The position numbers were made by a program, and so were the translations under genes. Shown here piece after piece: positions 18,681 through 57,145 of a stretch of 64,000 nucleotides of DNA; within the stretch, counting starts at the first letter, position 1, and the number at the start of each line of letters is the position of its first letter. This DNA is from a virus (lineage: Duplodnaviria > Heunggongvirae > Uroviricota > Caudoviricetes). The stretch lies in IMG/VR virus record IMGVR_UViG_3300010356_003454, positions 72,820 to 136,819 of that record; one strand, given 5' to 3'. Below the pieces are notes generated by a model. It did no database searches. It worked only from the letters and a program-made list of their open reading frames with translations, and was not told the origin of the DNA.

Positions 18681-18684
18681 AATA

Positions 18685-32710: not shown

Positions 32711-32731
32711 GTTAAACTTTTGTTAAAAAAG

Positions 32732-32765
32732 TTCCCGAGGTATCGTTGATATCTCGGGAATTTTT
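32732..32765 (+). terminator. rho-independent terminator fused to a -10-like TATATTAG
   Basis: ttcccgag/ctcgggaa 8-bp perfect stem followed by TTTTT, then TATTATATTAGCC. Confidence 0.5.
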
Positions 32766-32794
32766 ATTATATTAGCCCTATAAAACAAAAGATT

Positions 32795-35755: not shown

Positions 35756-35794
35756 AATATTTTTTTATCTCGGAAAGTTTGTTTATATTTAGAG
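35754..35794 (+). promoter_or_regulatory. conserved intergenic module copy
   Basis: AAAATATTTTTTTATCTCGGAAAGTTTGTTTATATTTAGAGG followed by GTAATTAAAAA and the ATG at 35813. Confidence 0.35.
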
Positions 35795-37095: not shown

Positions 37096-37611
37096 ATGAG
37101 AGCAAAAACTGTTAATGAGAATAATCAATTTGAAAGAGGACAGGATCCTAAAGATGCTATGGATATAGGAAGATACAAAGATCTTAAGGATAAAGATTTT
37201 GATATATGGAATTTTTTTCGATTTCTTCAGTTTAAAGAACATTCTGAAAGTAATGGAGTAACTTTTTATTCAAGAGGTGGGGGACAAGATGAATGCTATG
37301 ATTTTAAAAGAATTTATTATTTCGATGAATATAACTGGATTTCTGATGAAGAAATAATGGATATATTTAGTAGTATTAATAAAAAAGAGCTTCTTAAAAT
37401 TTCGGATAATATAGAGTTATTAGCTTTTAAAGGATCTACTCAACAGAGCACATATTCTTTCCAAGTAGTATTTAAGGGCGATTATCAAGATTATATGGAT
37501 AGGGGGGAGGAAGAGACTATTGAAAAAATAGAAGAATATATTTCAGAATACTTCACTGAAAATTCCGAAGAATTTATTAATTTTGAGGATGAAGAATATG
37601 AAGATGAATAA
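37096..37611 (+). CDS. MRAK/FERG-leader family protein
   Basis: MRAKTVNENNQFERGQDPKDAMDIGR. Confidence 0.55.
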   Translation: MRAKTVNENNQFERGQDPKDAMDIGRYKDLKDKDFDIWNFFRFLQFKEHSESNGVTFYSRGGGQDECYDFKRIYYFDEYNWISDEEIMDIFSSINKKELLKISDNIELLAFKGSTQQSTYSFQVVFKGDYQDYMDRGEEETIEKIEEYISEYFTENSEEFINFEDEEYEDE

Positions 37612-37627
37612 AAATAAAAAAGAGGAA

Positions 37628-38128
37628 ATGAAACTAGTTGCTGAATCCCTAAATGAAATAAAAAATAGGGAAAAATTGATTAAAAGAAGGGAAAAATTAT
37701 TATCCGACTTAGAAAAAGCAAGATCTAATCATAAAAAAGCAGTGGATAGAAAGTCAGAATTTATTGAAAAATATGGAGAGGACGCTTGGTGGAATAATCT
37801 AAGCTATTACAAAGATGGGTATAATGCTTGGAAATATGAGAGAATGAGATATCCCGGAAAGGCTGCTTGGAATGGGGAAGGGCCCATACAGAGAGCGATA
37901 AATAATACATTTATTAAGAAATCCAATATTGAGGAGGAACTTAAAGAAATAGAGGCTAAATTATCTGGGGAGCAGGGGGAGACTGAATTAATGAATGATA
38001 AAGATGTATATATACCTGGGGTTTCGGAATATGACCCAGATCTGGATTATAAATATGCAATGACACATCCGGGCTATAAAGGACCCCCTGGAGGACCATA
38101 TACAAATTATTATAACGATCTGGATTAA
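37628..38128 (+). CDS. MKLVAESLNE-leader family protein
   Basis: Starts MKLVAESLNE, a second leader type shared with the genes at 47297 and 47948. AGAGGA lies upstream of the ATG. Confidence 0.45.
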   Translation: MKLVAESLNEIKNREKLIKRREKLLSDLEKARSNHKKAVDRKSEFIEKYGEDAWWNNLSYYKDGYNAWKYERMRYPGKAAWNGEGPIQRAINNTFIKKSNIEEELKEIEAKLSGEQGETELMNDKDVYIPGVSEYDPDLDYKYAMTHPGYKGPPGGPYTNYYNDLD

Positions 38129-38157
38129 TTTTTTCTTAAATTTTAACGTTTTTTCTT

Positions 38158-38187
38158 CCCAAACATCGTTGGTGTTTGGGAATTTTT
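38158..38187 (+). terminator. rho-independent terminator in a conserved module
   Basis: cccaaaca/tgtttggg stem followed by T-run. Preceded by AATTTTTTCTTAAATTTTAACG, which is identical to the sequence at 49742. Confidence 0.5.
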
Positions 38188-38220
38188 GTTTATATTTATA
38201 GTGTAATTAAACTTAGTGAG

Positions 38221-40626
38221 ATGAAAAAATTATATTTAGTGATCTACATTTACACAGATTACAGGAATTACAAAATTGGAAAAGCTGCTAGATATGCATC
38301 TTCACCCGAAGAAGCAGCAAAAATTCGTATTTCGGAACAAACTACAGCAGCTACTTATGGTAATTGGAAATTAGTAGATGTATTGGTGATTTCCAGAGAA
38401 GGCCTAGATCCTTTATTTGTAGAAGCATATATTCATAATCGGATACAGGAATTGGGATATGAAAGACTTCATCGTAATGTCCAGTTTTCAGAAAAAGATA
38501 TTAAAGAAGGCCTTTCAGAATGGTTTAATTTTAGAAAACTTAATGAATTTAAGGTAAAGCGTCTTATACGCGAAATTTTTTCTGAGATTAATCATGCATC
38601 AGGCCAGAAATTTTATATCCCAAGATTTTATCAAGCTCTGGTAAAGGCTATTACTTTAGATAAAATAGAATCTGGATTAATGGAATCGGATTCGATAACA
38701 ATAGCATTGGAGCTTGCTCCGAGATTTGGAAAAACCCTATGGGCATTAGATCTATTTAATGAGTTAAGATATTTAGGAATTAATGTTTTGATCCTCCCAA
38801 CTTTTGTATTATCCTCGACTTCTTCTTTTACTAAAGAGATTACAAGTTTTGGTGATTTCGAACATTTTTATCTTTTGGATTCATCGGATTCAGAATTTGA
38901 TAAAAAACTTAAAGAATCGAAGGAATCAGGAAAGATAATGGTTATTGGGGTTTCTATGCATATGTCAGAGGATTCTTTGAAAAAATATAAAAAATCAATG
39001 AGCATCATTAGCAAAGATAGGATTATGTCTATTGTCGATGAGGCTGATTTTGGGGCTCATACAGAATCAAGCCGGGAAGTTTTGAATGCGGTAGATTCAA
39101 AAATAACGCTTTTGATGACGGGTACTGCTATTGAAAGAGCTATCAAAGGGCTTGTATTTATCCAAAATAATATAATTATTTGGACTCAGACAGATATGCA
39201 AATGGTTAAAAAGGGAACTCATCCTATTCTTCAATATATTGGGGATGGGGACAAACAATTTTCCAACAGGGTTAATTCAGTTTTGAAAAAATATACAATA
39301 GAAGAAGCAAAAAAAAGCTGTGCTAATCTTCCAGAAATAGAAATGCTTAAATTAAATCTTTCAAATATTTCTATTTTGCAAGAAATGCAGGATATTGAAT
39401 TAAGAGGTAAATGGACAAAAATTCTTACTGATGTTAATCAGAGCAAATCTATTATAAAAACAGTCTATAAGGGCCTTTTCGATTTCCCGAATATGGAATT
39501 TGATAATCCCGATCTAAAGAATATGAGCAAAATTTATCTTCGGAAAAAATGCAGGTTAGGAGTTACTATGATTTTTGGAGGATTTCCAAACAAAAAAGAG
39601 CAAAAAGCTTTTGTAAAATTCCTTCAAACCATACTAGGTGATAATTTTGAGGTTTATGAAATAAATGGAGATGTAACTACAAATAAAAAAGCGGAAGAAA
39701 AAGCAAAAAGAATTATCGCCAAAAATAAATTAAATAGGGAAGAAGGAGTGGATAGACAGATAATCTTTGTTTCCAAGGATATGGCTTCTCGAAGTTTTTC
39801 AATTTCCGAAATTGATACTGTAATACTTATGTATGACAGGGGAATGATCAATTCAACCGCCCAGAAAATCTCAAGGGCATTTACTCCTGGTAATAACTTA
39901 TATGACGAAGAGAAATTGGTTTCACACGTCGTTAGTTTAAGCCTGGATGCATCAAGAGAACACTGTCCTATTGATCTTTACATAATTCAGGAGGCAGCTA
40001 GAATTGGGGAATATGATCCAAATGGATCTATAGAGGGTCCAATTAAGAACGTAGCTTCCTGCTATAATATCTTCCAGAATACAGATAATGGATTTCTCCC
40101 AATAGAAATGGATGACTATTCCCAATTCTTGATTGAAGGAGCAGGATCTGATTTATTAAGAATTGCTAGCTCAACAGTAGATGTATCAGATCTCGGATCC
40201 ATAATTCTTTCGATGGATCAGGAAATGATAGATTTTTTGGATCTTGCATCTCCTAATGGGTCTAATAAACAAAAATCTAAAGGCAGAACGGAGATATCTG
40301 TTAATGAGGTGAAGACCTATTATAATAATCATAGAGGTCCAAATGATGAAAAAATAAAAACATTGGAAGAAAAATTATCAGAAGTTCTCAGAGATATTAA
40401 CTATTGTGTGCCAGATTTAGTTATGCTTGATGATTATAGACATGATAATATTTCGGATATAATTGGAAATCTCTATAATATGCCTGAAATATACAAAGAT
40501 ATTGAAGAGGATTTAGGTTTTTCTATAGTCCTTGCAAAATATTTACTTCCATATCTTAATCATAGACTTCTTAATACAGCAATAGAAATTTTTATTAAGG
40601 AAGAGGATAAATTTTTCATTATATAA
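38221..40626 (+). CDS. T5orf172/GIY-YIG-like N-terminal domain fused to SF2 DEAD-type helicase
   Basis: N-terminal YLVIYIYTDYRNYKIGKA...EWF is T5orf172-like. Walker A is APRFGKT. Motif II is VDEADF. Motif III is LLMTGTA. Motif VI is QKISRAF. Confidence 0.55.
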   Translation: MKKLYLVIYIYTDYRNYKIGKAARYASSPEEAAKIRISEQTTAATYGNWKLVDVLVISREGLDPLFVEAYIHNRIQELGYERLHRNVQFSEKDIKEGLSEWFNFRKLNEFKVKRLIREIFSEINHASGQKFYIPRFYQALVKAITLDKIESGLMESDSITIALELAPRFGKTLWALDLFNELRYLGINVLILPTFVLSSTSSFTKEITSFGDFEHFYLLDSSDSEFDKKLKESKESGKIMVIGVSMHMSEDSLKKYKKSMSIISKDRIMSIVDEADFGAHTESSREVLNAVDSKITLLMTGTAIERAIKGLVFIQNNIIIWTQTDMQMVKKGTHPILQYIGDGDKQFSNRVNSVLKKYTIEEAKKSCANLPEIEMLKLNLSNISILQEMQDIELRGKWTKILTDVNQSKSIIKTVYKGLFDFPNMEFDNPDLKNMSKIYLRKKCRLGVTMIFGGFPNKKEQKAFVKFLQTILGDNFEVYEINGDVTTNKKAEEKAKRIIAKNKLNREEGVDRQIIFVSKDMASRSFSISEIDTVILMYDRGMINSTAQKISRAFTPGNNLYDEEKLVSHVVSLSLDASREHCPIDLYIIQEAARIGEYDPNGSIEGPIKNVASCYNIFQNTDNGFLPIEMDDYSQFLIEGAGSDLLRIASSTVDVSDLGSIILSMDQEMIDFLDLASPNGSNKQKSKGRTEISVNEVKTYYNNHRGPNDEKIKTLEEKLSEVLRDINYCVPDLVMLDDYRHDNISDIIGNLYNMPEIYKDIEEDLGFSIVLAKYLLPYLNHRLLNTAIEIFIKEEDKFFII

Positions 40627-40676
40627 TCGTTAACTTTACGAAATATTTATTATATTTAAGTATAAATTATAACTAA

Positions 40677-41942
40677 GTGAGTAACTTTAATAAATATTGG
40701 ACTGCTAGGGGGAACTCAAAAAAAGCCGAGGTTTTTACCCCGTCTTTTTTAGTCAGAGAAATGCTTGATAAAATTCCTGCAGAAATTTGGAGGAGTTCAG
40801 AAACTATATTTTTAGATCCTTGCTTTGGATCCGGAACATTCATAAAATGCATCATTGAAAAGCTAAGGGAATATGGACATAGTGATGAGAATATTTCTAA
40901 AAGGATCTGGGGAGTAGAAATTAATAGAAAATGGTATAATAGGGTAAAACATTTCAGGATTGGCGAGTATAATATAAGAAACATCTATTGTGTAGATGCT
41001 CTAAATACAAATATTTTAGATGGTATGAAGTTTGATGTAGTATGTGGGAATCCGCCTTATCAGGGGAAAAAATTAGGGGGTGGAGCTGGATCTGGAAATG
41101 CTATATGGCATAAATTTGTAGTAAATGCTTTTAATGCTCTAAAGGAGAACGGATACCTTTGCTTAATTCATCCTATAGATTGGAGAACTAATCTTTCGCA
41201 GAAAAAGATTGAATCTGCTAGGAAAATTTTGATGACGAATCAAATAGAATATTTAAAATTAGCATCAGCCCCATTCCCTGGTATAGGAGCTTATGTTGAT
41301 TGGTATATTCTGAAAAAACGTGAGAAAAAAGAAAATACTTTAATAGATTTTCTGGATTGCCAAAAAAATGTTTTTTTAGATAATAAATTATTTCCTCTAT
41401 ATTCTTATAACAGCGATACTGTAAATTCAATAAAATCGAAAGTTTTAATGGATGCTACAAATAATCTAAATATGAGGAAACCATTTCACGGGTTAACTAT
41501 ATTAGATAGGTCTAAGCCAAAAGGAAAATATAAATTTGCTCATGGAACCGGATATACAAAAAATGAATGGAAATATTATGATTATCCGCATATTCATCAA
41601 TATCATAAAAAGGTTATAATGTCTTCCGTTAGGATACCTAGAGCTATTTATGATGATGGGAATATAGGGATCGGGGATCATGTTCATTATATTTTGGTTA
41701 ATAATAAGGAAGAGGGGGAATTTCTAACCTCTGTGATAAATAGCAAGCTTGGTATATTTCTGCAAAAGATTTTCGTTACTACCTTTTGGGATGGCGAATC
41801 CTCTCATTGGAATAATCCATATCCAATCTCTAAATTAAAAATAGACAATAGGAAATTCGAATCGGATATAGAGATCTATGATTATTTTGGATTAAGTAAG
41901 GAGGAGAGAGAATACATTGATAAAGAACTAAGAACCAAATAA
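40677..41942 (+). CDS. N6-adenine DNA methyltransferase (Eco57I/gamma-class-like)
   Basis: Motif I is LDPCFGSGTF. Motif IV is CGNPPYQG. GTG start. An in-frame TAA lies immediately upstream. Confidence 0.65.
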   Translation: MSNFNKYWTARGNSKKAEVFTPSFLVREMLDKIPAEIWRSSETIFLDPCFGSGTFIKCIIEKLREYGHSDENISKRIWGVEINRKWYNRVKHFRIGEYNIRNIYCVDALNTNILDGMKFDVVCGNPPYQGKKLGGGAGSGNAIWHKFVVNAFNALKENGYLCLIHPIDWRTNLSQKKIESARKILMTNQIEYLKLASAPFPGIGAYVDWYILKKREKKENTLIDFLDCQKNVFLDNKLFPLYSYNSDTVNSIKSKVLMDATNNLNMRKPFHGLTILDRSKPKGKYKFAHGTGYTKNEWKYYDYPHIHQYHKKVIMSSVRIPRAIYDDGNIGIGDHVHYILVNNKEEGEFLTSVINSKLGIFLQKIFVTTFWDGESSHWNNPYPISKLKIDNRKFESDIEIYDYFGLSKEEREYIDKELRTK

Positions 41943-41950
41943 TTAAATTT

Positions 41951-42817
41951 ATGAATATTTTCGAATTTTTACTAACATCTATTTTAAACTTCATGGTTGG
42001 AGTGTTAATTGCCTATTATTGCACACGATTTTGGGCTATTAAAACAAGTCCTGGCAAATCTTTATTGGATCAGCTAGCAAAAGATACATATTCTTTTTTT
42101 CAGGAAAATGGGGGAATGGAAGTTAGCGAAAATTATGTATTTTTTCATGTTCATAATAATTTTTTATTAGATTCGATTTATGATTATTATAGTAAGGATT
42201 TTTTTAAGAAGAGAGATGAGATTCAAAGAAATACCGGATATTTGAATAAAAAATATAAGGATTTTTTTTATTGCGTAGATAATTTATATAAAGGAATAAA
42301 CCAATTTTATATGAGCTATAAAGCTCAGTCAAAATTAGCAGATCATTACAGAGAAGAACTTATAAATTATTTTTCGGGACCTAGTAAATGGGATATAAAA
42401 GTTCCATATATTCTTTATTTTTTAGACAAAATGACTGGAGAAAATGAGATTTTTAAAAATTTTAGAGAGAATTTTTTAGATTATTATTTAAAATTAGGAA
42501 AATATAAAGATGTAAATACCGTTTCATTCCAATATGATCCTCATGAAATGAAACAGATTTTAAATTTATTTATTTTAAATAAGGATTTTTTTAAAAAGAC
42601 TATAAAAGAATTGGAATTAGGAGTTTCTACTATAACTAGCGAAAAATCCTGCAGAAAATATTATAGATCTGGTGAAATAATAAAATTATTGGAGGATTAT
42701 GAGGATTGCAAAAATAAACTAACTAATATTGAATTAGATAATAAGAAAGAAATAAAATATCTTATAGGGAAGATTCGAAACCATAAGTTATATCAATCAA
42801 TAAATAGTAAAAAATAG
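41951..42817 (+). CDS. membrane-anchored hypothetical protein
   Basis: N-terminal TM helix. K/Y/F-rich. Confidence 0.35.
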   Translation: MNIFEFLLTSILNFMVGVLIAYYCTRFWAIKTSPGKSLLDQLAKDTYSFFQENGGMEVSENYVFFHVHNNFLLDSIYDYYSKDFFKKRDEIQRNTGYLNKKYKDFFYCVDNLYKGINQFYMSYKAQSKLADHYREELINYFSGPSKWDIKVPYILYFLDKMTGENEIFKNFRENFLDYYLKLGKYKDVNTVSFQYDPHEMKQILNLFILNKDFFKKTIKELELGVSTITSEKSCRKYYRSGEIIKLLEDYEDCKNKLTNIELDNKKEIKYLIGKIRNHKLYQSINSKK

Positions 42818-42840
42818 TATAAATTTCTTGAATATATAAT

Positions 42841-43056
42841 ATGGAAGATCGATGGTACACATATAAAGAAATCCTCCAATTATTTGGGATCTGTAAGCAG
42901 ACTCTTTATAACTGGAGGAATAATGGTACTATCGAATACAAAGAAATTACTAAAAAGACTTTCTTGTATAAGCTTCCAAAAGAGAAAAATATTCAAAAAA
43001 ATGGATTACAAGAAGATTTACGAATCGATAATAGCGAAAGCAAAGAGCGAGAATAG
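42841..43056 (+). CDS. Xis/MerR-like HTH DNA-binding ORF
   Basis: YTYKEILQLFGICKQTLYNWRNNGTI is HTH_17-like. The last 56 nt overlap the HNH gene in the +1 frame across an A7 run. Confidence 0.4.
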   Translation: MEDRWYTYKEILQLFGICKQTLYNWRNNGTIEYKEITKKTFLYKLPKEKNIQKNGLQEDLRIDNSESKERE

Positions 43057-43696
43057 GAATAAGGGAAATGGAATTTATTATGAATCTCATCATATAGTTC
43101 CAAAATGTCTATGTGGATCAGATACTAAAGATAATAGAGTTCTTTTAACGGCTAAAGAGCATTTTGTTTGTCATAAGCTACTGGCAAGGATTTATCCAGA
43201 TAGTAATGGTATACGATTTTCGTTCTTTTTAATGTGTCAATCCAGCGATAATCAAGAAAGATATCAAATTTCCTCCAGAGATTATGAATATGCTTGTGAA
43301 TTAAATCGCCAAGCTTGTTTGGGAAATAGATGGAGAAGAGGAAAGAAAGCTCCTCATTCGGAGGAAACTAAAAAAATACTAAGCAAACATTTTTCGGAAC
43401 ATCTACCAAAATATGCTTTTAAAAAGGGAATGATTCCTTGGAATAAAAATACATTAACAGAGGATCAGAAGAAATATATTAAAGAGCATACATTATCGAT
43501 GGAATATATTTCTAAAAAATTTGGGATATCCAAAAGACAAGCAGGAGATTTAAAACATGGACATATAGATGGAAAAAGATTGGGAGTTACTGAAAAAGAT
43601 ATCCAATATATCAGAGAGCATACTCAAAATTGTGTTCAAATAGCTAATAAATTTAAAACAACTCAGAGAATTGTGAGTATAATTAAAAATAGTTAA
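43001..43696 (+). CDS. HNH homing endonuclease
   Basis: YESHHIVPKCLCGSDTKDNRVLLTAKEHFVCH is an HNH motif. Confidence 0.6.
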   Translation: MDYKKIYESIIAKAKSENRNKGNGIYYESHHIVPKCLCGSDTKDNRVLLTAKEHFVCHKLLARIYPDSNGIRFSFFLMCQSSDNQERYQISSRDYEYACELNRQACLGNRWRRGKKAPHSEETKKILSKHFSEHLPKYAFKKGMIPWNKNTLTEDQKKYIKEHTLSMEYISKKFGISKRQAGDLKHGHIDGKRLGVTEKDIQYIREHTQNCVQIANKFKTTQRIVSIIKNS

Positions 43697-44143
43697 ATGG
43701 ACGAGATAAAAAAGAAGGAATTAGAGGAGAGAAGAAAGGCCCGAAGAAAAATCAGCGCGGAAGATTTTACTCCGATTGAATTAGTTAATGAAATGCTCGA
43801 TAAGTTACCTGCTGAAGTATGGGCCGATCCTAATAAGACCTTTTTGGATAACAGTGGAGGAAATGGAAATTTTGTTGTTGAAGTATTAAGAAGAAAATTA
43901 GAAAGGGGCCACGATCCTCTTCAGGCTCTGTCCACAATATATTCTGTAGAACTAATGTATGATAACGTTGAAGAGATGCATCATCGCATGTACTCAATTG
44001 TTAAAGATTTTCTCCATACTCAAGAAGATAAAGACAAGGCATTCAAAATAATCAAGGAGAATCTGGTCTGCCACGACGCATTGACCTGGGATTACGAAAA
44101 CTGGTGCTCACCAAATACTCATCACGCAGTTCCTCTTTTTTAA
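43697..44143 (+). CDS. methyltransferase N-terminal-domain paralog (lacks catalytic NPPY half)
   Basis: FTPIELVNEMLDKLPAEVW...FLDNSGGNGNF aligns with residues of the 40677 MTase (FTPSFLVREMLDKIPAEIW...FLDPCFGSGTF). The ORF ends before motif IV. Confidence 0.45.
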   Translation: MDEIKKKELEERRKARRKISAEDFTPIELVNEMLDKLPAEVWADPNKTFLDNSGGNGNFVVEVLRRKLERGHDPLQALSTIYSVELMYDNVEEMHHRMYSIVKDFLHTQEDKDKAFKIIKENLVCHDALTWDYENWCSPNTHHAVPLF

Positions 44144-44225
44144 CTACTCCTTAACGATATATTCTATCTATTTTTAAAACTATTATTTTATATCTTATAA
44201 TAGGGATATAATTTAAACTAATAAA

Positions 44226-44741
44226 ATGGAAAAAGTAAAAGTATCGATTAATGTAATGGTTCATCCTAATCTTGTTCCTATGATTGAAAAATTCAATAAG
44301 ATCGGGGGAATCTATGATAACTTAAATTCAGGTCTTTTAAGCGAACCCTTAATGCCTCTATTTCTATCCGAACATTTTGGAGAGCCTGTGGAGTTTATTA
44401 ATGGTAATGGAATAGATTACAGAACATCAATAACTGGAAAAACTATTGAAAATAAGGCACTAACTATGTCTAAAGGATCTTCGGATTTAAAAAATTTCGG
44501 GGAGGTAAAAGAGAATTCTGATTATCTTTCTATTTTTCATCCGGACGAAAATAGGTTTTTTTTAATGCCTATGAAGGAAGCTCAAAAATTTCTTATAAAT
44601 GAGGATATTACAAATAACAAAGAGCATGTCCCTTTCTGCAAAAATCTGATTCCTTCAAGCCGAATATCTAAGGCCTCAATTAATACTATGCATCTTTTAA
44701 ATCATTCCGAAGAAATAAGTCTTTCTTTATTGGATAAATAA
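44226..44741 (+). CDS. hypothetical protein
   Basis: ORF. Confidence 0.35.
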   Translation: MEKVKVSINVMVHPNLVPMIEKFNKIGGIYDNLNSGLLSEPLMPLFLSEHFGEPVEFINGNGIDYRTSITGKTIENKALTMSKGSSDLKNFGEVKENSDYLSIFHPDENRFFLMPMKEAQKFLINEDITNNKEHVPFCKNLIPSSRISKASINTMHLLNHSEEISLSLLDK

Positions 44742-44758
44742 AGAAAAAGTATCCCTTA

Positions 44759-45988
44759 ATGAGAGCTCGATTTGTACTTTACGAATTCGCTAAAAACAAA
44801 GATTCTAAATATTATGCTCCTGATTATCTTATACAGGAGCTTATGGATGCTGTTAACAAGTATGTTCCTCTCCATGAGATAGATCATATAGTTGAACCAG
44901 CTTCTGGCGACGGAGCGCTAATACCTTTTATTGATAAGATAGCTAATGCCTATAATATTGATACCAGCTATTATGATCTAAAACCAGATCCAGGCAATCC
45001 TCGTATTGAACAGCAAAACTTCTTAGACTATTCTCCAGAACCATATTTCAGTCCATCTAGGCTTGTACTCACAGGACCACCTTATGGGGAACCTGGAGCT
45101 ACAGCCAAACTATGGAAGCAGTTCGCTCAGAAGGCTTCAGAGGTGGCAGGATATGTCGCTTTTATCTCTCCGGTTACTTGGCTTGATGTGAAACATCCTG
45201 TTCCTCATCTAGAACTTATCTATCAGAAGGACATGGGGTGGGTTAAATTCAGGGGCAGCGAAGCTTTCGGCGGTGAAGACCATCCTGTTAAGACTGCTAT
45301 ACTTATCTATAAAACTATCAAAGAGCCACAAACTGAAGACTTTTCATTTATAGATAACGATTTCATTATTCAGGAGATCTATGGTCGTGATAACTTCAGG
45401 AATAGAAAATACGATTATTATATTCTCTCCTGGGGCCGTGATTCAGGCAGAGTTAATACCTCAGGAAGGTATCCTGATGGCCGACTATTTTCTAAGGCAA
45501 TTGGAATAAAGGTCTTGGATGAGGCTCGTAGGGATGATTTAGAAGCGTTTTTAGAGACTTTCGAACAGGACTATAAGGATAAGATCGCCAGATACTCAAT
45601 TACAACAGCTAATGTCTTAAGTGTGCCTCGTTTTAAGAGATTTCTCGGAAACGCTCTATATTCGGGGATGAATGAATCTATAGACTTCGAAAGAGAAGGG
45701 AATCCATACGAGAAATTACGTATCGGTCGTAAGGTAACAAGGCCTTATCCTCAAATGAAGCCGAAAGAATTTTTTCAATGGTATCAGTCTGAGGCCTTTC
45801 CATATTATGATTCCGATGAGTTCTCTTTTTCTAGCGTGCTTTCAGATCTTGTTAATGACGAGGAGTCTACAGATGAAGAACTTCGAGAGGTATGGACTGA
45901 AGAACTTGATGTTCCAGAAGAAGTTATAGATAAACTATTACCTATGCGGGGTTATTTCTTAGATTTCCGCTATATTCAGAACATATGA
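44759..45988 (+). CDS. MRAR-leader protein with methyltransferase-like fold (non-canonical GPPY) and C-terminal FERG module
   Basis: Leader MRARFVLYEF. Motif-I-like EPASGDGAL. TGPPYGE sits where NPPY would be. A C-terminal FEREGNPYEKLRIGR...RPYPQM...MRGYF module is paralogous to the 46607 C-terminus. Confidence 0.5.
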   Translation: MRARFVLYEFAKNKDSKYYAPDYLIQELMDAVNKYVPLHEIDHIVEPASGDGALIPFIDKIANAYNIDTSYYDLKPDPGNPRIEQQNFLDYSPEPYFSPSRLVLTGPPYGEPGATAKLWKQFAQKASEVAGYVAFISPVTWLDVKHPVPHLELIYQKDMGWVKFRGSEAFGGEDHPVKTAILIYKTIKEPQTEDFSFIDNDFIIQEIYGRDNFRNRKYDYYILSWGRDSGRVNTSGRYPDGRLFSKAIGIKVLDEARRDDLEAFLETFEQDYKDKIARYSITTANVLSVPRFKRFLGNALYSGMNESIDFEREGNPYEKLRIGRKVTRPYPQMKPKEFFQWYQSEAFPYYDSDEFSFSSVLSDLVNDEESTDEELREVWTEELDVPEEVIDKLLPMRGYFLDFRYIQNI

Positions 45989-46617
45989 AACTAGTACCAG
46001 AACATATAGATGAGGTAATGGGCTTCCAAAGAGGAATAGATCCTAAGGAGGCTATTGGTATAGGAAGGCTAGCGAATATACCTAGCGAAAAGATCCGTAA
46101 TGCTTTTGCATGTGTCCGCAATTATTCTCTTGAAGATCTTGAGGATATGTATAGAAGGATTAGAGCTAAATCTAATATCTCTCTTGATGGAGTTCCTATA
46201 GAGAAATTATCTAATCATGAATGGATAGAATTTAATAATAAAGTTGTTAATGGTATTAAATCTCTTAGGAGAAGAAAGGTAAAAGCGGTCTCTCCATTTG
46301 GAGAAGGCGATATCCTAAAAGTAGTTCATCACGGAAGGACTTATTTTGGAGTTTATGATGGAATAGACAAACATGGGAGGATTAAGGCAAAGGGGAATAG
46401 GGCTAGATTAGCATTTGGCTTAGACAGATATACTCTCGCAACTCCGGAAGAGGCAGAAGCTTTTAGAAAAGAAGCAATTGAAAGAGAGAAACAGAGATGG
46501 GATTTGCAAATTCGCCGAGTTAAAATGCTGCTTTCAATGGGATCTGCTAAACCGGAAGATCTAGAAAGACTTATAAGAGACTATAAAAATACATTCCGAG
46601 AAGATTATGAGGGCTAG
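45985..46617 (+). CDS. FERG-leader family protein
   Basis: MGFQRGIDPKEAIGIGR. Confidence 0.5.
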   Translation: MKLVPEHIDEVMGFQRGIDPKEAIGIGRLANIPSEKIRNAFACVRNYSLEDLEDMYRRIRAKSNISLDGVPIEKLSNHEWIEFNNKVVNGIKSLRRRKVKAVSPFGEGDILKVVHHGRTYFGVYDGIDKHGRIKAKGNRARLAFGLDRYTLATPEEAEAFRKEAIEREKQRWDLQIRRVKMLLSMGSAKPEDLERLIRDYKNTFREDYEG

Positions 46618-47293
46618 AAGAGTCATAGAATCTATCAATTTCGAAAGGGGAAAGGATCCTAAAACAGTTATGGATATAGGAAGGACTAAATATGCGTTTC
46701 CTGTCGAAGATATTATTTTCAGAGGGGGAAATGTAATATCTCCTGAAGAGGGCGATAAGTATTTAAGGACAGTTTTACCTAGGAGATTGAAGAGCGTTAT
46801 ATCCAGGCCAGGTGCAGTTTGGAATTACCCAAGATTCAAAGATGGCCTTCATTATGCAGATGCTAAATGGATCATGAGACAAGGCTATAGCGGAATTAAA
46901 TATAAGGGAACTTTTTATCCATTTCCTAAAATAGAGGGATTTGATTTCCAAAGGAGCGGTGAAGAAGAAATCGATGAATCTGTAAATTTCGAAAGAGGAA
47001 AAGATCCTAAAAAGGTTTTACGTCTTGGAAGAGTTCGTCCGTATCCTGATATGACTGTGGAACAATTCCAGAGATGGTTTAGAGAAGAAATAGTTCCTTA
47101 TTTAGATGATGATGGTGAACAGGCTATTGTAGATAATCTATTGATGAATGATTGGGAGGCTGATTGGGAAGTAGCTGAATATTTAAGGGGAAGGCATCTG
47201 TCGCCGGAGATTGTTGACGATTTAATGTATATGAGGGGCTACTTTAATGACAGAGAATATATAAAGAGACTATTTGACGAAAAATTATTTTAA
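46607..47293 (+). CDS. MRAR/FERG-leader protein with two FERG modules
   Basis: N-terminal MRARRVIESINFERGKDPKTVMDIGR. Internal VNFERGKDPKKVLRLGRVRPYPDM...MRGYF. Confidence 0.5.
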   Translation: MRARRVIESINFERGKDPKTVMDIGRTKYAFPVEDIIFRGGNVISPEEGDKYLRTVLPRRLKSVISRPGAVWNYPRFKDGLHYADAKWIMRQGYSGIKYKGTFYPFPKIEGFDFQRSGEEEIDESVNFERGKDPKKVLRLGRVRPYPDMTVEQFQRWFREEIVPYLDDDGEQAIVDNLLMNDWEADWEVAEYLRGRHLSPEIVDDLMYMRGYFNDREYIKRLFDEKLF

Positions 47294-47296
47294 GAT

Positions 47297-47941
47297 ATGA
47301 AGCTAGTAGCAGAATCACTTAATGAGGCCTTAAATGAGGGAGCTCTTATAAAATTTGGAAGAAGCACGCAGAGTTTGAAAGAGGAGTATCCTATTTTCAA
47401 GAACTTATCTGTTGCAATGATACTTGAAGCTCTTCAGAGAGTGAATTCTACTCATTTTACAGGAGGAAAATTAGATTTATTCAAGTTCTATGACTTTATA
47501 AAGAAATTTAGGGGATATACTAAATCCTTTAATGATATGAAGGAGGTTATGACTGAAATCGCTCCGGTTTTAGGTATTGTGGATCAGATTCGCTTTTCTA
47601 GAGAGGAAAGGAGCGAGATTAAATTTAAAGAGAAAGCTCTAAATGGAGAGGTTCCTATAGAGTATTTTGATGAGGCTGAGATTCCAGAGGATACTATAGA
47701 AGATGAGGATTATGTTGTTAGAAGCATGGGCGGGGATACTGAACCCGCTTTCTATAGATTTGATAGAGAACTTAATCAGAGAGAGCGAAATCTATTAAGA
47801 GTATCTTATGCCCTTAATCATGGTAATCCTGAAGTTAGCACATGGAGAACTTATCTTGGTGCAGTTCCGGCTAAAGTAGGATTTGTTCGAAGAAATAATA
47901 GAAGTTTTGATTATACAGCAGGACTTGCAAAAAAGAGATGA
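47297..47941 (+). CDS. MKLVAESLNE-leader family protein
   Basis: MKLVAESLNEALNEG. Confidence 0.45.
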   Translation: MKLVAESLNEALNEGALIKFGRSTQSLKEEYPIFKNLSVAMILEALQRVNSTHFTGGKLDLFKFYDFIKKFRGYTKSFNDMKEVMTEIAPVLGIVDQIRFSREERSEIKFKEKALNGEVPIEYFDEAEIPEDTIEDEDYVVRSMGGDTEPAFYRFDRELNQRERNLLRVSYALNHGNPEVSTWRTYLGAVPAKVGFVRRNNRSFDYTAGLAKKR

Positions 47942-47947
47942 TAAAAT

Positions 47948-48571
47948 ATGAAATTAGTAGCAGAATCACTTAAGGAATTCTTAGGAATTAATAGGCTGGA
48001 CGAATTTGAGAGATCCGGAGATCCTCATAAGACTATGGGTATAGGACTCGAACCAGTTATTAAAGACTGGATGAGAAAGAATACTCATTATAATGTTGAT
48101 GAGAAGCCAGCCGAATACTCATGGAGAAAACCTCCTACAGTCTACAGTCTCTTATGGCTTTCTGTGAAGCATAATCATCCGCAGTGGGTTAAAGCTCTTT
48201 TGCAAAAGGGATATGATCCTAATGAGAACGGTGGTGCTGCTCTAAGATGGGCTTGCGGTCTTGGTTATAAAGATATAGTAGGTCTCCTTCTTGATGCTGG
48301 AGCTGATCCAGATGCTAAAGGACCAAGCGGTCCTCAGGAGGCTTATGAATGGGCAAGGCGAGAAGGTCATAGAGATATTATTAAAATGCTGGATATGAGT
48401 AAGGCGGGATATACTTTTACAGATAAAGGTCCGGATTTTGAACTACCAGAAGAGCCAGAAGAAGAGTCTAAAAAGACCCCCGAAGCTCCTCCCGTTCCGG
48501 CTAAGCCCGTAGAGCGACCCGAAGAGGAAGAGGAAGAGGAAGAGGAAGAAGAAAAAGGAGGCTGGTTTTAA
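47948..48571 (+). CDS. MKLVAESL/FERSGDP-leader ankyrin-repeat protein
   Basis: Leader MKLVAESLKEF...FERSGDPHKTMGIGL. Ankyrin repeats (NGGAALRWACGLGYKDIVGLLLDAGADPDAKG). C-terminal poly-E tail. Confidence 0.55.
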   Translation: MKLVAESLKEFLGINRLDEFERSGDPHKTMGIGLEPVIKDWMRKNTHYNVDEKPAEYSWRKPPTVYSLLWLSVKHNHPQWVKALLQKGYDPNENGGAALRWACGLGYKDIVGLLLDAGADPDAKGPSGPQEAYEWARREGHRDIIKMLDMSKAGYTFTDKGPDFELPEEPEEESKKTPEAPPVPAKPVERPEEEEEEEEEEEKGGWF

Positions 48572-49455
48572 TGAAGGCTATGAGAGTCATAGAATCGGTA
48601 GAATTTCAGAGAGGAGCAGATCCATATACTTCTTTAGGTATAGGAAAGTCTACTCAAAGGGATTTTTCTGGTGGTAAAGAACTCATAGAATGGGCTTATA
48701 ATTTTCCTGCAGTATGGTCTAAGGGGGAGATCCCGGAATGGAATGATTCTGATTACATAATTAGAAAACCATTCGGCGGATACCTCGAAGAAGTCTATAT
48801 ACAGAGAATGAGGAATATAAAGCTTATAGTAATAAAATGGATTAAAGATAATATTACTATTAATGGAGAGCCTTTAAGCCTTAAAGAAGCTATGAATATG
48901 TTTGAAGAAATTCAGAAGTTCGTTATTAAGAATCTAGAAAGGGAACGGGGAATTAGAGAGAGCATAGATTTTCATAAAGGAGGTAATCCGCTGGATACGC
49001 TAGAGGTTGGCAGAATAGAGGAAAGAAAGGATGCAGCATATAGATCTTTTATGGATTGGCTTTCTACATACTCATTTAAGGAGGCAGATGTTATTGAAGA
49101 GACTTATGATCAACCTTATGGATTCTTTGGTGATGATGAAAAGGAGGCTTTGATATTTAATGGATTAACTGTTGATGAAGTTTCTAAGAAAACTCCAGAA
49201 GAAATGGAGAGATATTTCAAAATTGTAGAAGAGGTTTTCGGCCTCACTTTTTGGGCCGCTGAAATAGCTAAATTGGAATATGAAGAATATAAAACTATGC
49301 CAGAGGAGGATAAAGAGGAGCTGGAGCAAAAGATAGAAGATGATTTTGGAACATATAATTTTTTGGAATATCTTGTAAAGTATTTCATTAATAAATGGCC
49401 AGGAAAGGTAAAAATAAAAGATCCATATGAGAGCAAAAAGCGTAAACGAAGCTAA
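48571..49455 (+). CDS. FERG-leader protein with two modules
   Basis: N-terminal MKAMRVIESVEFQRGADPYTSLGIGK. Internal IDFHKGGNPLDTLEVGR. Confidence 0.5.
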   Translation: MKAMRVIESVEFQRGADPYTSLGIGKSTQRDFSGGKELIEWAYNFPAVWSKGEIPEWNDSDYIIRKPFGGYLEEVYIQRMRNIKLIVIKWIKDNITINGEPLSLKEAMNMFEEIQKFVIKNLERERGIRESIDFHKGGNPLDTLEVGRIEERKDAAYRSFMDWLSTYSFKEADVIEETYDQPYGFFGDDEKEALIFNGLTVDEVSKKTPEEMERYFKIVEEVFGLTFWAAEIAKLEYEEYKTMPEEDKEELEQKIEDDFGTYNFLEYLVKYFINKWPGKVKIKDPYESKKRKRS

Positions 49456-49744
49456 TTTCGAGAAGGGACAAGATCCTAAGGATGCTCTGGGTATTGGAGT
49501 TGGCGAAAAACTCCGAATGGAGGGTATAGATGCTCTTACTCATTTCCTATATTATGCTAATGCAAAGGATATGATAAAAAAAGTCTGGAATGACTGGGAT
49601 CATATGTGGGATAAGCTAAAGAACAAAGTCGGGGATGGATATATGGATCCGAATGCTCTTATGAGTTTTATAAGAGATTTAGATGTGGAGAATCAGAAAA
49701 AGCTATATGATTATATTATAAAGAACCATTCGAATAAATGGTAA
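49427..49744 (+). CDS. MRAK/FERG-leader family protein
   Basis: MRAKSVNEANFEKGQDPKDALGIGV. Confidence 0.55.
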   Translation: MRAKSVNEANFEKGQDPKDALGIGVGEKLRMEGIDALTHFLYYANAKDMIKKVWNDWDHMWDKLKNKVGDGYMDPNALMSFIRDLDVENQKKLYDYIIKNHSNKW

Positions 49745-49773
49745 TTTTTTCTTAAATTTTAACGAAATTCCAG

Positions 49774-49802
49774 CCGTAATATTTTTTTATTACGGTTTTT
49801 TT
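49774..49802 (+). terminator. rho-independent terminator in a conserved module
   Basis: ccgtaata/tattacgg perfect 8-bp stem followed by a 7-T run, then TTGTTTATATTAGC and GTAATTAAAA. Preceded by AATTTTTTCTTAAATTTTAACG. Confidence 0.55.
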
Positions 49803-49835
49803 GTTTATATTAGCTCTGTAATTAAAATTAATTTT

Positions 49836-50441: not shown

Positions 50442-50480
50442 AAAATATTTTTTTATCTCGGAAAGATTCATTATATTAGC
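50442..50480 (+). promoter_or_regulatory. conserved intergenic module copy
   Basis: AAAATATTTTTTTATCTCGGAAAGATTCATTATATTAGC, 17 nt before the ATG at 50497. Confidence 0.35.
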
Positions 50481-51617: not shown

Positions 51618-52032
51618 AAATGAAAATGGATCCCGCGAAAGATCTTTGATCATCGTTCGCGGGATCCCGTAACTGGGTTCGGGAAAAAGTACCTTTGCTA
51701 AGCTATTAGGTCGTGCAGTCTGTACCGCAGATGATTTTCATACTGATCGAGACGGAAATTATAACTGGAAGCCTGAAAATGTTGGCAGAGCTCATGAGTG
51801 GTGTAAGCGTAAGTGCAAGAGATTTATGAAGGCCGGAATTGAGACCATAATTATAGCTAACACTTCAACGACTGAGGATGAAATACGTCCATATATAATG
51901 ATAGCTAAAAATCATGGATATAGAGTGTTTTCGATTGTTGTTGAGAATAGACACGGGGGAGTAAATGAACACAATGTTCCTGAGGCCACTCTGGAAAAAA
52001 TGAAGAATAGATTTTCAATAAAACTGATATAA
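51607..52032 (+). pseudogene. polynucleotide-kinase-like P-loop kinase (AAA_33/Pnk-type) interrupted by in-frame TAA within the Walker A motif
   Basis: The reading frame gives ...SLIIVRGIP-TAA-LGSGKSTFAKLLGRAV...DDFHTDRDG...; the canonical form is hhhhRGxPGSGKST. The interruption behaves as a 6-nt insertion (TAACTG). The only ATG-initiated piece in the track (51826-52032) is the C-terminal third. Confidence 0.45.
51628..51667 (+). repeat. perfect 12-bp GC-rich inverted repeat (GGATCCCGCGAA / TTCGCGGGATCC) with 16-nt loop
   Basis: Arms at 51628-51639 and 51656-51667. The loop contains a TTG that could serve as a start codon (51646). An in-frame TAA follows 3 nt after the right arm. Confidence 0.7.
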
Positions 52033-53308: not shown

Positions 53309-53357
53309 TCACAAAACTCTTAACAATATTTTAACTATAAATTCTAAATAGAAAGAA

Positions 53358-54204: not shown

Positions 54205-54293
54205 TTTTTAACAAACTTTTAACGCTTAAAATTTTTTTAAAATTTAACTTTTTCTTATATTAAGGTGTAATAAATATAGAGAAATTACCTAAC

Positions 54294-55004
54294 ATGAAAA
54301 TAATACTTAATACTCAGAGCTCAGAATTACTTAATTATTTTATAAGGGCTTCGAAGAATTCTGCATCAGGACCAGAGAGTAAAAGAGCAGAAATCCAAGG
54401 ATCTAGAGTCGAATCCGGCCTTTTTGATCATATAGGAGTTCCTTCCGTTGATGCATATCTTATAGAAGTTCCGACATCTTATTCTAAAAGGGCCGTTGAC
54501 TTTATCAAAAAGAAAACTCCTTATGTTCCCGTAATTCTGTTTGGCTCGCCTGAATCCCTGATTGAGGTTTCCGGTGCAGATATTTACATTCCACTTTGCA
54601 ATTATTCAGAAGAATTCTTTGCAAGTTTCTACCAGTTAGCTATTTGGAATGCTTCGAATTATATTCGTAATTTCGAAAAGCTTCGTAAATTAACCACGAA
54701 GATGAGTGATGTTATCGAATTCAATAATTGTAAGTATGATCCTACCCGCAGGACTCTATTCTATAAAGGGAGCGAGTTAAAGAGGCTATCGGCTAAAGAG
54801 GGCGGAATTATAGAAGTTCTTGCTTCTAATTTTGGGGAGGTGGTTAAGAAAGAAATCATCTTGGAGAAGGTATGGCATAAATCAGACTATTTCTCCGGTC
54901 GCTCAATGGATGTCTATGTCACGCATCTAAGGACCTTATTTAAGGAGAACGATGTTGATGTTAATATAAAGAATATCTCCGGTGTTGGACTAATACTTGA
55001 ATAA
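54294..55004 (+). CDS. OmpR/PhoB-type winged-helix transcriptional regulator-like protein
   Basis: The C-terminal LKRLSAKEGGIIEVLASNFGEVVKKEIILEKVWHKSDYFSGRSMDVYVTHLRTLFKE matches the trans_reg_C winged-helix pattern. The N-terminal region is not clearly a receiver domain. Confidence 0.5.
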   Translation: MKIILNTQSSELLNYFIRASKNSASGPESKRAEIQGSRVESGLFDHIGVPSVDAYLIEVPTSYSKRAVDFIKKKTPYVPVILFGSPESLIEVSGADIYIPLCNYSEEFFASFYQLAIWNASNYIRNFEKLRKLTTKMSDVIEFNNCKYDPTRRTLFYKGSELKRLSAKEGGIIEVLASNFGEVVKKEIILEKVWHKSDYFSGRSMDVYVTHLRTLFKENDVDVNIKNISGVGLILE

Positions 55005-55257: not shown

Positions 55258-55359
55258 ATCTAACGTTTTTTAACGTTTCATAAGTCATTTAGATCCTCAA
55301 ATATTTTTTTATTTGGGGATTTTTTCTTACATTTACTTAGTAATTAAAACTATAAGACA

Positions 55360-55970: not shown

Positions 55971-57074
55971 ATGAATTACACACTTGATTTTATCAGAAAG
56001 AATAATCTCATTATTTTTGAAGCAATAATGGGATCGCATGCATACGGAACCAATATTGAGACTTCGGATAAGGATATCCGAGGGGTCTTCATTCAGCCTC
56101 TTGAAGACATTCTTAAGTATGGATATAAGGATCAGGTTGCTGATAAGACCAACGATATTGTCTTTTATGAACTGAAGAGATTTCTCGGACTGGTTAAGAC
56201 TAATAATCCTAACATCCTTGAGCTCCTTAATGCTCCTGCAGATTGTATTATCTATAAGAATTCTCTTTATGATCTTATCGCTCAGAATGCTCGTCATTTT
56301 GTTACGAAGAAGTGCCGCTGGACTTTCGCTGGTTATGCTATCGAGCAGATTAGGAAGGCAAGGGGATACAACAAGATGATGAACTGGGAAGAATCTAAGA
56401 TGACCCGAAAGGGTGTTCTGGATTTCTGCTACATTATTGAAGGGGGAGAGACCATACTCCTTGAGGAATGGATCAGAAGAACCGGTAGAAATACAGAAGG
56501 ATCCCTCTTCAGCGATCAGAGAATGCTTGCTCTTGCAAAGATCGATCACGCTCATGACATTTATGCAGTTTATGATCTTAGTAATTTCAAGGGTCTTTAT
56601 GGAGTTGTTGGAAAGGAGAATGCAAATGATGTTCAGCTTACCTCTATCCCTAAGGGACAAAAGGTCGTTGCTATCCTTACTTTCAATAAGGACGCATACT
56701 CAACTCATTGCAAGAATTATCTGGCTTACCAGACTTGGCTGAAGGAGAGGAATGAGGATCGTTTCAAGATGAACAAGGCTCATGGTAAGAACTATGACTC
56801 GAAGAATATGATGCATACCTTCCGTCTTCTTAACATGGCTCTTGAGATTGCAGCTACCGGAGAGATAAGAGTTCGTAGATCAGATGAAGAAAGAGAAAAG
56901 CTTCTTAAGATCCGTCATGGCGAATACGATTATGATCTTCTTATCGAAGAAGCAGAAGATATGATCAAGGATCTTGATCGTGCATTCGATCAGTCTTCTC
57001 TTCCTGATAAAATTCACGATAGCTTTATCGCTAATCTTGAATATGAAATCAGAGAAAAAAGATATGGTCTTTAA
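55971..57074 (+). CDS. Pol-beta-superfamily nucleotidyltransferase (PF10127-like 'predicted NTase')
   Basis: MGSHAYGTNIETSDKDIRGVF matches the G[SG]...D.D NTase-fold signature. Confidence 0.5.
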   Translation: MNYTLDFIRKNNLIIFEAIMGSHAYGTNIETSDKDIRGVFIQPLEDILKYGYKDQVADKTNDIVFYELKRFLGLVKTNNPNILELLNAPADCIIYKNSLYDLIAQNARHFVTKKCRWTFAGYAIEQIRKARGYNKMMNWEESKMTRKGVLDFCYIIEGGETILLEEWIRRTGRNTEGSLFSDQRMLALAKIDHAHDIYAVYDLSNFKGLYGVVGKENANDVQLTSIPKGQKVVAILTFNKDAYSTHCKNYLAYQTWLKERNEDRFKMNKAHGKNYDSKNMMHTFRLLNMALEIAATGEIRVRRSDEEREKLLKIRHGEYDYDLLIEEAEDMIKDLDRAFDQSSLPDKIHDSFIANLEYEIREKRYGL

Positions 57075-57088
57075 CACACTTTTAACAC

Positions 57089-57116: not shown

Positions 57117-57145
57117 TTTATATTAGCAAAATAAAATACAATCTT

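Follow-up and report, generated by a model that had tools for sequence, protein, structure and literature searches.

The 64,000-nt stretch of viral DNA considered here, referred to as the window, spans positions 72,820 to 136,819 of the IMG/VR record IMGVR_UViG_3300010356_003454, and it raises the question of what is signified by a 22-nt sequence, AATTTTTTCTTAAATTTTAACG, that follows the stop codons of two of its genes, and by the hexamer TTAACG, which recurs in its intergenic DNA. An earlier note on this sequence had postulated a binding site, perhaps for a dimeric regulator or an antitermination factor, or else a processing signal. The functional unit is neither the hexamer nor the 22-mer, but a direct repeat of short boxes, TTAAC-N6-TTAAC, set at a preferred distance from a -10-like hexamer, TAnATT. 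Judged from the sequence, the boxes are on balance predicted to be activator or regulator sites for a phage-encoded transcription factor and to form the upstream module of one class of promoter.

The enrichment of TTAACG is real, confined to intergenic DNA, and biased to one strand. TTAACG or its complement CGTTAA occurs 28 times in the window versus 16.3 ± 4.6 expected, and the contention that at least a dozen copies are intergenic holds: 13 of the 28 are intergenic or overlap a stop codon, on the plus strand at 16005, 18982, 26138, 38143, 44151, 49759, 54219, 55270, and 63481 and on the minus strand at 6488, 8033, 19359, and 40628, with the coordinates given previously being right to within 0-9 nt. 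Intergenic DNA amounts to ~2.7 kb at 21% GC, in a window that is ~35% GC and carries nearly every gene on the plus strand. In this small fraction, TTAACG is found 8 times versus 1.13 expected from dinucleotide shuffling, a roughly 7-fold excess that none of 1000 shuffles reaches. A first-order Markov model gives 8 versus 1.1 expected for TTAACG and 4 versus 0.9 for CGTTAA in intergenic DNA, and 8 versus 7.8 and 7 versus 6.5, respectively, in coding DNA; the density of TTAACG is 2.93 per kb intergenic versus 0.13 per kb coding. After correction for composition, then, coding DNA stands at expectation and the two densities are not equal, as the proposal of an intergenic enrichment implied. When intergenic k-mers are ranked against shuffles, TTAACG and TTTTAAC come out on top, together with TTATATT/ATTAGC and ATCTCGG. 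The longer form that had been described, TTAACG-N-TTTTTTAAC directly after a stop codon, is exact at 26138 and 63481 and has near variants at 16005 and 55261, but its position after the stop is not fixed.

TTAACG is not an element of its own; it is the best-conserved half-site of the direct repeat TTAAC-N6-TTAAC, which has a period of 11 bp, or sometimes 10. There are 8 exact repeats in the window versus 0.14 expected, 7 of them co-oriented with transcription on the plus strand and all at gene ends. When spacers of 0 to 25 nt were scanned in the window and six relatives (158 kb), N6 accounted for 26 sites, N5 for 5, and every other length for 0-2, with a single minus-strand site, at N6; in IMG/VR relatives (260 kb), the counts were 32 for N6, 17 for N5, and at most 2 for the others. 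Direct half-sites spaced by 10-11 bp from centre to centre are the arrangement of an OmpR/PhoB-type operator. Furthermore, all 31 tandem sites in the window and the six relatives lie at gene ends, and 30 of these are 25-89 nt upstream of an ATG-led open reading frame (ORF) of at least 45 codons. In four cases (16005, 44140, 57071, and 59525), the TAA of the box doubles as the stop codon of the upstream gene; that the boxes start at or within the upstream stop is a consequence of the compact genome. On a 316-kb contig whose regulator homolog is 41% identical to the candidate described below (L047, IMGVR_UViG_3300037067_008064), 12.7 kb contain seven copies of TTAAC-N5-TTAAC and none with N6, so that the preferred period there has shifted from 11 to 10 bp. 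A separate repeat in the window, the 18-mer AAGTGGCAGTATATGGCA, is present as two exact copies 63 nt apart (18950-18967 and 19013-19030; 0 expected), the first overlapping the stop of ORF 18625-18951 and the second the start of ORF 19025-19357, with a TAAC-N6-TAAC pair (18973-18986) between them.

What sets the position of the boxes is the hexamer. The recurring layout is a stop codon, the TTAAC boxes, an optional hairpin with a T run or the sequence ATTTTTTTATCTCGGAAA, a T-rich stretch, TAnATT, and then, after 21-40 nt, ATG. In the window, TTAACG lies 47, 47, 48, 47, and 48 nt from the hexamer at 16005, 26138, 38143, 49759, and 63481, respectively, and one-turn and two-turn variants are seen at 54219 (37 nt) and 55270 (58 nt); the tandem boxes start at -48/-37 or -47/-36 relative to the hexamer. 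Among 37 nonredundant tandem sites (234 kb, 11 lineages), the proximal box is exactly 37 nt from the hexamer in 20 and 35-38 nt from it in 25, while 8 more are orthologs of the site at 53320, where the boxes directly abut TATAA(A/T/C)T. Departures from 37 nt come as multiples of 10-11 nt (47/48, 58/59, and 68), a pattern that fits a need for one face of the DNA helix. The position is thus fixed and helically phased with respect to a hexamer that is presumably a promoter element. In contrast, the offset from the stop codon, which had been taken to place the element, ranges from overlap to 48 nt past the stop, and both stop-codon positioning and tandem in-frame stops were rejected on this ground. 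The supposed tie to terminators fares no better. A stable hairpin is present at 38156, 49772, 55291, 57087, and 32727 and absent at 26135, 19355, 35750, 44140, 54208, and 59525, so that several boxed sites (26138, 44140, 54208, and 59525) have none. Since the spacing is the same with or without a hairpin, the boxes are tied to the hexamer and not to the terminator or the stop codon.

The hexamer is not accompanied by a TTGACA-like element 16-18 nt upstream, and a scan for sigma-70 promoters finds 52 versus 56.7 expected. TTAACA or TTAACG, which matches TTGACA at 5 of 6 positions, was considered as a sigma-70 -35 element and rejected, as it would be separated from the hexamer by 31 nt and neither box is followed 17 nt downstream by a -10-like sequence. 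A Bacteroidetes-type -7 element, TAnnTTTG, was not adopted; it fits only some of the hexamers (TATATTTG at 16052, 52831, and 59573), and the relatives have GTATATT(A/T/G). Iterons or a replication origin and a methylation or restriction site were likewise rejected, the sites being dispersed one per promoter with a fixed promoter geometry.

The individual sites follow this plan with few deviations. On the plus strand, a tandem box with one mismatch, TTAACGATTTTTTAGC, at 16005-16020 precedes a hexamer at 16052 and the gene for an NAD-dependent ligase; TTAACGATTTTTTAAC at 26138-26153 precedes TACATT at 26185, with no hairpin; and TTAACTACTCCTTAAC at 44140-44155, with the stop codon within its first box, precedes TATATC at 44189. 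At 54208-54223, the tandem box before the regulator gene, which is found in every close relative, is accompanied by a third TTAAC at 54239 and a hexamer at 54256. The boxes at 55260-55274, CTAACGTTTTTTAAC, have a 10-bp period and lie at -68/-58, followed by a terminator and TACATT at 55328. The stop codon falls in the first box at 57071-57086, which is followed by a terminator, a hexamer at 57119, and a NUDIX gene, and in the second box at 59525-59540, which is followed by a hexamer at 59573 and a 5'-3' exonuclease gene. At 63481-63496, TTAACGGTTTTTTAAC lies just past a terminator, with a further TTAAC at 63504 and TAAATT at 63529. The only reversed site, on the minus strand at 32711-32726 (GTTAAACTTTTGTTAA as read on the plus strand), is upstream of a terminator and a hexamer at 32768. 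Finally, TTAACAATATTTTAAC at 53320-53335 on the plus strand directly abuts TATAAAT, a second type of promoter, and has an ortholog in 6 of 6 lineages and also in L012. This second promoter-like motif, TATAAAT or (G)ATATATAA, lies ~10-25 nt before ATG and resembles T4 late promoters. Intergenic regions of this type end at 2577, 4993, 6563, 10735, 11192, 20729, 32064, 50798, and 53357, and the motif precedes the DNA polymerase fragment among others; only the copy at 53336 has TTAAC boxes, directly abutting it.

Relatives were recovered by way of an RlaP-like gene, the contigs carrying it, and the regulator gene, and the conservation that the earlier note had proposed to check is seen in them: in orthologous intergenic regions, the boxes and their spacing are kept while the surrounding sequence has diverged. 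The pattern extends to relatives with 65-75% identity in the neighbouring RlaP protein and to three with 49-56% identity in the regulator homolog. Upstream of the regulator gene, 6 of 6 lineages have TTTAAC-N6-TTTAAC(G/A)nTTAAAATTT followed by the hexamer TATATT, and upstream of a 209-aa gene, 6 of 6 have CTCTTAACAAnnTTTTAAC directly followed by TATAAnT. Tandem boxes precede the regulator gene in 9 of 9 metagenomic lineages and in 17 of 22 IMG/VR contigs with a homolog that is 41-55% identical. In two negative controls, Lak-A1 and LR756500, the 41 kb sampled of each genome holds 62-65 single TTAAC sequences and no tandem box, and no homolog of the regulator was found in these samples.

The candidate binder is a 236-aa atypical OmpR/PhoB-type protein encoded at 54294-55004 on the plus strand, in which a winged-helix DNA-binding domain (residues 138-235) follows an N-terminal domain that resembles a receiver. 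The ORF matches Trans_reg_C of Pfam (E 1.7e-13), and residues 138-235 match the OmpR/PhoB DNA-binding domains of ArlR, SaeR, PhoB, and KdpE among PDB sequences. An AlphaFold2 model (39 homologs, pLDDT 87.6) places a receiver-like (beta-alpha)5 domain at the N terminus and a winged helix at the C terminus, and by Foldseek it matches full-length OmpR/PhoB regulators, the atypical RitR first and CosR and HP1043 among them. The receiver is not canonical: NT stands after beta-1 in place of an acidic pair, E58 occupies the phospho-acceptor position, which is variable in the family alignment, and I99-P100 replaces K-P. The protein is thus likely to be an atypical or pseudo-receiver regulator, and the degenerate pocket makes phosphorylation-independent action likely. 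The family has 188 members of 47-95% identity, all full length and all metagenomic, some of them on contigs of 155-376 kb. Across the clade, the recognition helix (R203-R213), RSMDVY(V/I)(T/S)(H/Y/N)(L/I)R, hardly varies, and neither does the box. A winged-helix protein of the appropriate kind co-occurs with the boxes across the clade, as judged from the Pfam match and the sequence and fold matches. Of the alternatives that the earlier note left side by side, it is the site for a dimeric regulator that remains the best reading, given 11-bp direct repeats and an encoded OmpR/PhoB-type protein, and the antitermination or processing signal that becomes unlikely.

These results lead to a model for the boxes. 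In this model, a head-to-tail dimer of the phage protein would bind both boxes on one face of the helix, and the bound dimer would activate RNA polymerase at TAnATT promoters that have no recognisable -35 element. If transcription is assumed to start ~7 nt after the hexamer, the box centres would lie at about -57 and -46, for which activation is the most likely outcome. Where the boxes abut TATAAAT (53320), the protein may repress or act differently. It would also control its own gene. In addition, a Rho-independent terminator of the upstream gene often occupies the space between the boxes and the hexamer, to give a boxes-terminator-promoter cassette.

It should be noted that several points weigh against this model. 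The transcription start, and hence the standing of TAnATT as a promoter, is deduced from position and conservation. Only 64 kb of the genome is in view, and the true binder could be a host factor or another DNA-binding protein whose gene lies beyond it; for each genome used as a co-occurrence control, 41 kb was covered. At the 22-mer loci there is a single box instead of a pair, and the boxes are oriented opposite to most sites of SaeR, the OmpR-family regulator compared below, as these are written. Furthermore, the base-contacting residues reported for SaeR, H198 and R199, appear from our alignment to differ in the phage protein, and specificity is therefore not transferable by homology. Lastly, 6 of 16 promoter-like sites of the TAnATT type (type A), at 19393, 32768, 35784, 40651, 50472, and 52831, have no in-register box; the boxes are therefore not obligatory and probably define a regulated subset of promoters, such as a temporal class, rather than the basal promoter.

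If the phage protein were not the binder, the boxes could still be protein sites upstream of promoters, recognised instead by a host response regulator, by a phage factor encoded outside the window, or by the C-terminal domain of the RNA polymerase alpha subunit, as in an UP element. We regard this as rather unlikely, though geometry and conservation do not single out a binder and the 64 kb in view is part of what is probably a much larger genome. UP elements and class I activators act at about -40 to -60, and the boxes are suitably placed for either. However, UP elements are A/T-rich, whereas the C (and often G) is the most conserved part of the box; information content is highest over TTAAC, its C included, and often over the following G/A, so that the position fits an UP element and the sequence does not. 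More generally, 26 of 31 lineages have the boxes in front of the regulator gene, in company with a nearly invariant recognition helix, while neither boxes nor protein were found in the Lak and LR756500 samples, and a direct repeat with an 11-bp period is the binding signature of OmpR/PhoB-type proteins (PMC5083920). These findings speak for the phage protein as the binder.

How, then, do the two 22-mers fit a phage regulator that binds tandem boxes? Exact copies of the 22-mer span 38127-38148 and 49743-49764 of the plus strand, the second start having been given 1 nt too low, at 49742, and the window holds no further copy with up to 3 mismatches (0 expected). As had been claimed, both copies follow stop codons, each starting within a TAA (of ORFs 37583-38128 and 49427-49744, respectively), and each is followed by a different hairpin with a T run. 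At the first locus, a single TTAAC box (38143-38147) lies 48 nt upstream of the -10-like hexamer TATATT (38191-38196), with an apparent intrinsic terminator between them (38156-38182; 12 pairs, -15.9 kcal/mol, z -4.3); the hexamer is 24 nt before ATG 38221 of an 801-aa protein, which has a ResIII match just below the Pfam cut-off (22.1 versus 22.5 bits) and for which exact and related searches found nothing. At the second, the box (49759-49763) is 47 nt upstream of TATATT (49806-49811), which is 24 nt before ATG 49836, and the terminator (49772-49797) has 10 pairs and the loop TTTTTT (-13.8 kcal/mol, z -4.5). All of these features are on the plus strand. Both loci carry the distal box only, and the 5' arm of the hairpin occupies the proximal position, where the relative L003 retains TTAAG. 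In the relatives, invariance is limited to the 13 nt at the 3' end of the 22-mer, TTAAATTTTAACG; when both window cassettes are aligned with those of L003 and L024, an invariant TTAAATTTTAACG is followed by a variable hairpin and a conserved TTTTTnTnTATATT. The two loci are thus sister copies of one variant of the cassette, consisting of box, terminator, and hexamer, with only the distal box. Their identity may be due to shared ancestry or gene conversion of the cassette, together with constraint on the core TTAAATTTTAACG.

Strain variants of both loci are present in a metagenome scan, and no match to the 22-mer was found in IMG/VR. Strain L022 is 84% identical overall and 100% identical over the cassette (22-mer through ATG), and in the divergent relative L024/L025, an identical 22-mer with a related hairpin lies between genes that have no homologs in the window. 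It could be argued from these cases that the identity of the 22-mers is merely a by-product of recombination between mobile promoter-terminator cassettes, akin to the promoter-early stem-loop (PeSL) elements of other phages, and that TTAACG has no specific function, L024 then being a third, non-homologous gene context. As a full account this is improbable. It leaves unexplained the TTAAC boxes at many unrelated cassettes, the 11-bp period, the fixed distance to the hexamer, and the survival of the boxes amid diverged flanking intergenic sequence. L024 is the one case seen of a cassette that might mark the boundary of a gene replacement or indel between related phages. Cassette mobility is nevertheless compatible with regulation by the phage protein and is included in that explanation. 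The 22-mer is also exact in two unrelated contexts, Hainich groundwater contigs (L017/L018) and contigs of 44% GC (L021/L023), where similarity to the window extends over 24-31 nt and no cassette features are seen. These matches are probably due to chance, an AT-rich 22-mer being sought in a very large collection in which, by our own estimate, ~5 such matches are expected; an origin as CRISPR spacers was rejected, as there are no repeat arrays nearby.

The hairpins behind the boxes appear, from their sequence and its conservation, to behave as genuine terminators. Composites of a stem-loop terminator and a promoter recur at 38156-38196, 49772-49811, 55291-55333, 57087-57124, and 32727-32773. 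The hairpins that follow the 22-mers have a stem containing G+C, a short loop, and an immediate T run, as in Rho-independent terminators, and their structure is conserved: among five lineages, compensatory substitutions are found at 5 of 10 pairs of an orthologous hairpin set, and the arms CCGTAATA/TATTACGG of W49745 correspond in L003 to GCTGAGATG/TATCTCGGC, different stems in the same place. The sequence ATTTTTTTATCTCGGAAA is present as four exact copies (19368-19385, 26160-26177, 35759-35776, and 50447-50464; 0.03 expected), each ending 9 nt before a TAnATT hexamer, with an internal TTTTAT 15 nt from it. It resembles the loop and 3' arm of a terminator without the 5' arm; L003 has an intact version, GCTGAGATGTTTTTTTATCTCGGC, while the copies of ATTTTTTTATCTCGGAAA do not fold. 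TTAAC boxes are absent at three of these four promoters, and the copies could be decayed terminators or a separate upstream element.

The presence of such hairpins, and the co-orientation of the boxes with transcription, might suggest that the element acts at the level of RNA: located in the 3' end of the transcript from upstream, it would be a boxA/nut-like signal for antitermination or processing, operating jointly with the hairpin that follows some of the boxes. In keeping with this, TTTAACAA resembles the 3' part of the rrn boxA, GCTCTTTAACAA, and the site at 53320 reads CTCTTAACAA. Yet such a role is quite improbable. Only TTAACAA is shared with boxA, and the boxes are found at gene 3' ends, where promoter hexamers follow them, and not in leaders. 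At several boxed sites the hairpin is missing, yet the spacing to the hexamer is unchanged, and the hairpins that do occur have T runs, as terminators do, and are unlike boxB. The 11-bp period of the tandem boxes is a feature of the DNA helix and not of boxA, and one tandem site (32711) is inverted. Finally, Rfam and tRNA scans of the window gave no matches. The suggestion that chance, or the composition of AT-rich intergenic DNA, could produce the pattern draws on the 21% GC of that DNA and on the two unrelated contexts of the 22-mer, and is as good as refuted already by the 1000 shuffles and the Markov model, by the spacer scans, by the count of 8 tandem boxes versus 0.14 expected, and by their absence from the samples of Lak-A1 and LR756500, which are lower in GC.

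Among known systems, regulation by the phage protein would most resemble that by SaeR. SaeR of Staphylococcus aureus, a member of the OmpR family, binds GTTAAN6GTTAA, in which TTAA is essential and the G dispensable (PMC5083920), and the phage repeat is the reverse complement of this operator. As at SaeR sites, and also pho boxes and the half-site repeats of OmpR and KdpE, there are 5-bp direct half-sites containing TTAA, with a 6-bp A/T-rich spacer, upstream of promoters; a candidate cognate winged-helix protein of the OmpR/PhoB type is encoded nearby; and some phage sites have 1.5 repeats or the opposite orientation, as SaeR targets do (PMC5083920). Unlike SaeR, the putative regulator is phage-encoded, its receiver is without the usual acidic pocket and lysine, and its recognition-helix residues appear to differ; in addition, the phage sites read TTAAC on the coding strand and serve many phage promoters rather than a bacterial virulence regulon. 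With ChxR, HP1043, RitR, and CosR, the phage protein shares two domains and a degenerate receiver, and RitR, CosR, and HP1043 are among its best structural matches. However, these are cellular proteins, whereas the phage protein is found only on phage-like metagenomic contigs. ChxR is reported to regulate its own gene via direct repeats (PMC3960148).

The cassettes themselves recall the PeSLs of T4-type phages (PMC2839356, PMC4122927), in being short conserved composites of terminator and promoter that occupy many intergenic regions of a large phage and that stand beside unrelated genes in relatives. They differ from PeSLs in adding tandem boxes upstream of the stem-loop and in the absence of a -35 element of the sigma-70 type; only the case of L024 hints at a role in recombination, and the clade is unrelated to T4-like phages. 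A further parallel is provided by MotA of T4, a phage activator that recognises a single box near -30 upstream of a -10 element, at promoters without a normal -35, and that defines a temporal class through sigma appropriation. The proposed phage-encoded activator would similarly use a short box upstream of a -10 element at promoters lacking a -35, and may similarly define a temporal class; unlike MotA, it would use two boxes, near -57 and -46, and it is of the OmpR/PhoB type, MotA having a different fold (T4 middle promoters are reviewed in PMC2988021).

As a tentative extension, we suggest that a clade of huge phages, with contigs of up to ~405 kb, may run much of its gene expression through its own phosphorylation-independent OmpR/PhoB regulator, acting at SaeR-like boxes near -57/-46 in dozens of cassettes that include the one before its own gene, and that these cassettes may serve as portable recombination modules. 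If true, this would be a phage transcription programme analogous to that of T4 MotA but built from a captured bacterial signalling protein, and it would show a degenerate two-component response regulator put to work by a phage as a general transcription factor. Each ingredient is known, namely, OmpR/PhoB direct-repeat operators, atypical response regulators, and phage promoter-terminator cassettes. Their combination is not described in the literature that was searched on phage-encoded Trans_reg_C or OmpR-like regulators and on promoter motifs of huge phages, coverage that is incomplete and makes this weak evidence of novelty. For uncultivated huge phages, whose organisation of transcription is barely known, the analysis yields a promoter architecture that is concrete and conserved, a named regulator candidate together with its predicted operator, and an apparent autoregulatory loop. 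The signature TTAAC-N6-TTAAC, 32 nt, TAnATT could be used to annotate transcription units in the clade from metagenomes alone, and the protein and its DNA sites can be synthesised for in vitro tests without culturing either phage or host.

The gene content of the window is that of replication and nucleotide metabolism. It includes a family B DNA polymerase fragment, a ribonucleotide reductase large subunit, the NAD-dependent ligase, an IMPDH/GMP-reductase-like protein, a CCA-adding/poly(A) polymerase-like protein, the NUDIX and 5'-3' exonuclease genes, and a clamp-loader-like AAA protein. The nearest relatives of the polymerase are in Prevotella Lak megaphages (39% identity) and other phages of >400 kb, and a Megablast search with 36-52 kb of the window gave no nucleotide-level match among GenBank phages; the source therefore appears to be an uncultivated large phage. 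The polymerase ORF (6564-8006) is only 480 aa, comprising the exonuclease domain and the beginning of the polymerase domain, which suggests a split or interrupted gene. The sole convincing minus-strand gene (13133-13819) has a NUMOD3 motif, typical of homing endonucleases, and adjoins the IMPDH/GMP-reductase-like gene; in the module of this gene, relatives carry other mobile genes, encoding HNH (L007), a SegE-type GIY-YIG protein (L012), and two TnpB/OrfB_IS605 proteins (L009). Three apparent long intergenic gaps (31060-31188, 17971-18170, and 51618-51825) look coding. After the TAG at 31057, another frame encodes a short Cys-rich peptide (...DCKHEF...CLVCGR...); recoding of this TAG in the manner of Lak phages was rejected, as an in-frame TGA lies 10 codons on and the TAG stops of relatives directly precede cassettes. 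In the 36-44 kb part of the window, GC falls to 29-31%. An Eco57I/N6-adenine DNA methyltransferase-like gene (40677-41942) comes after the 801-aa ORF, and type-A promoters precede both.

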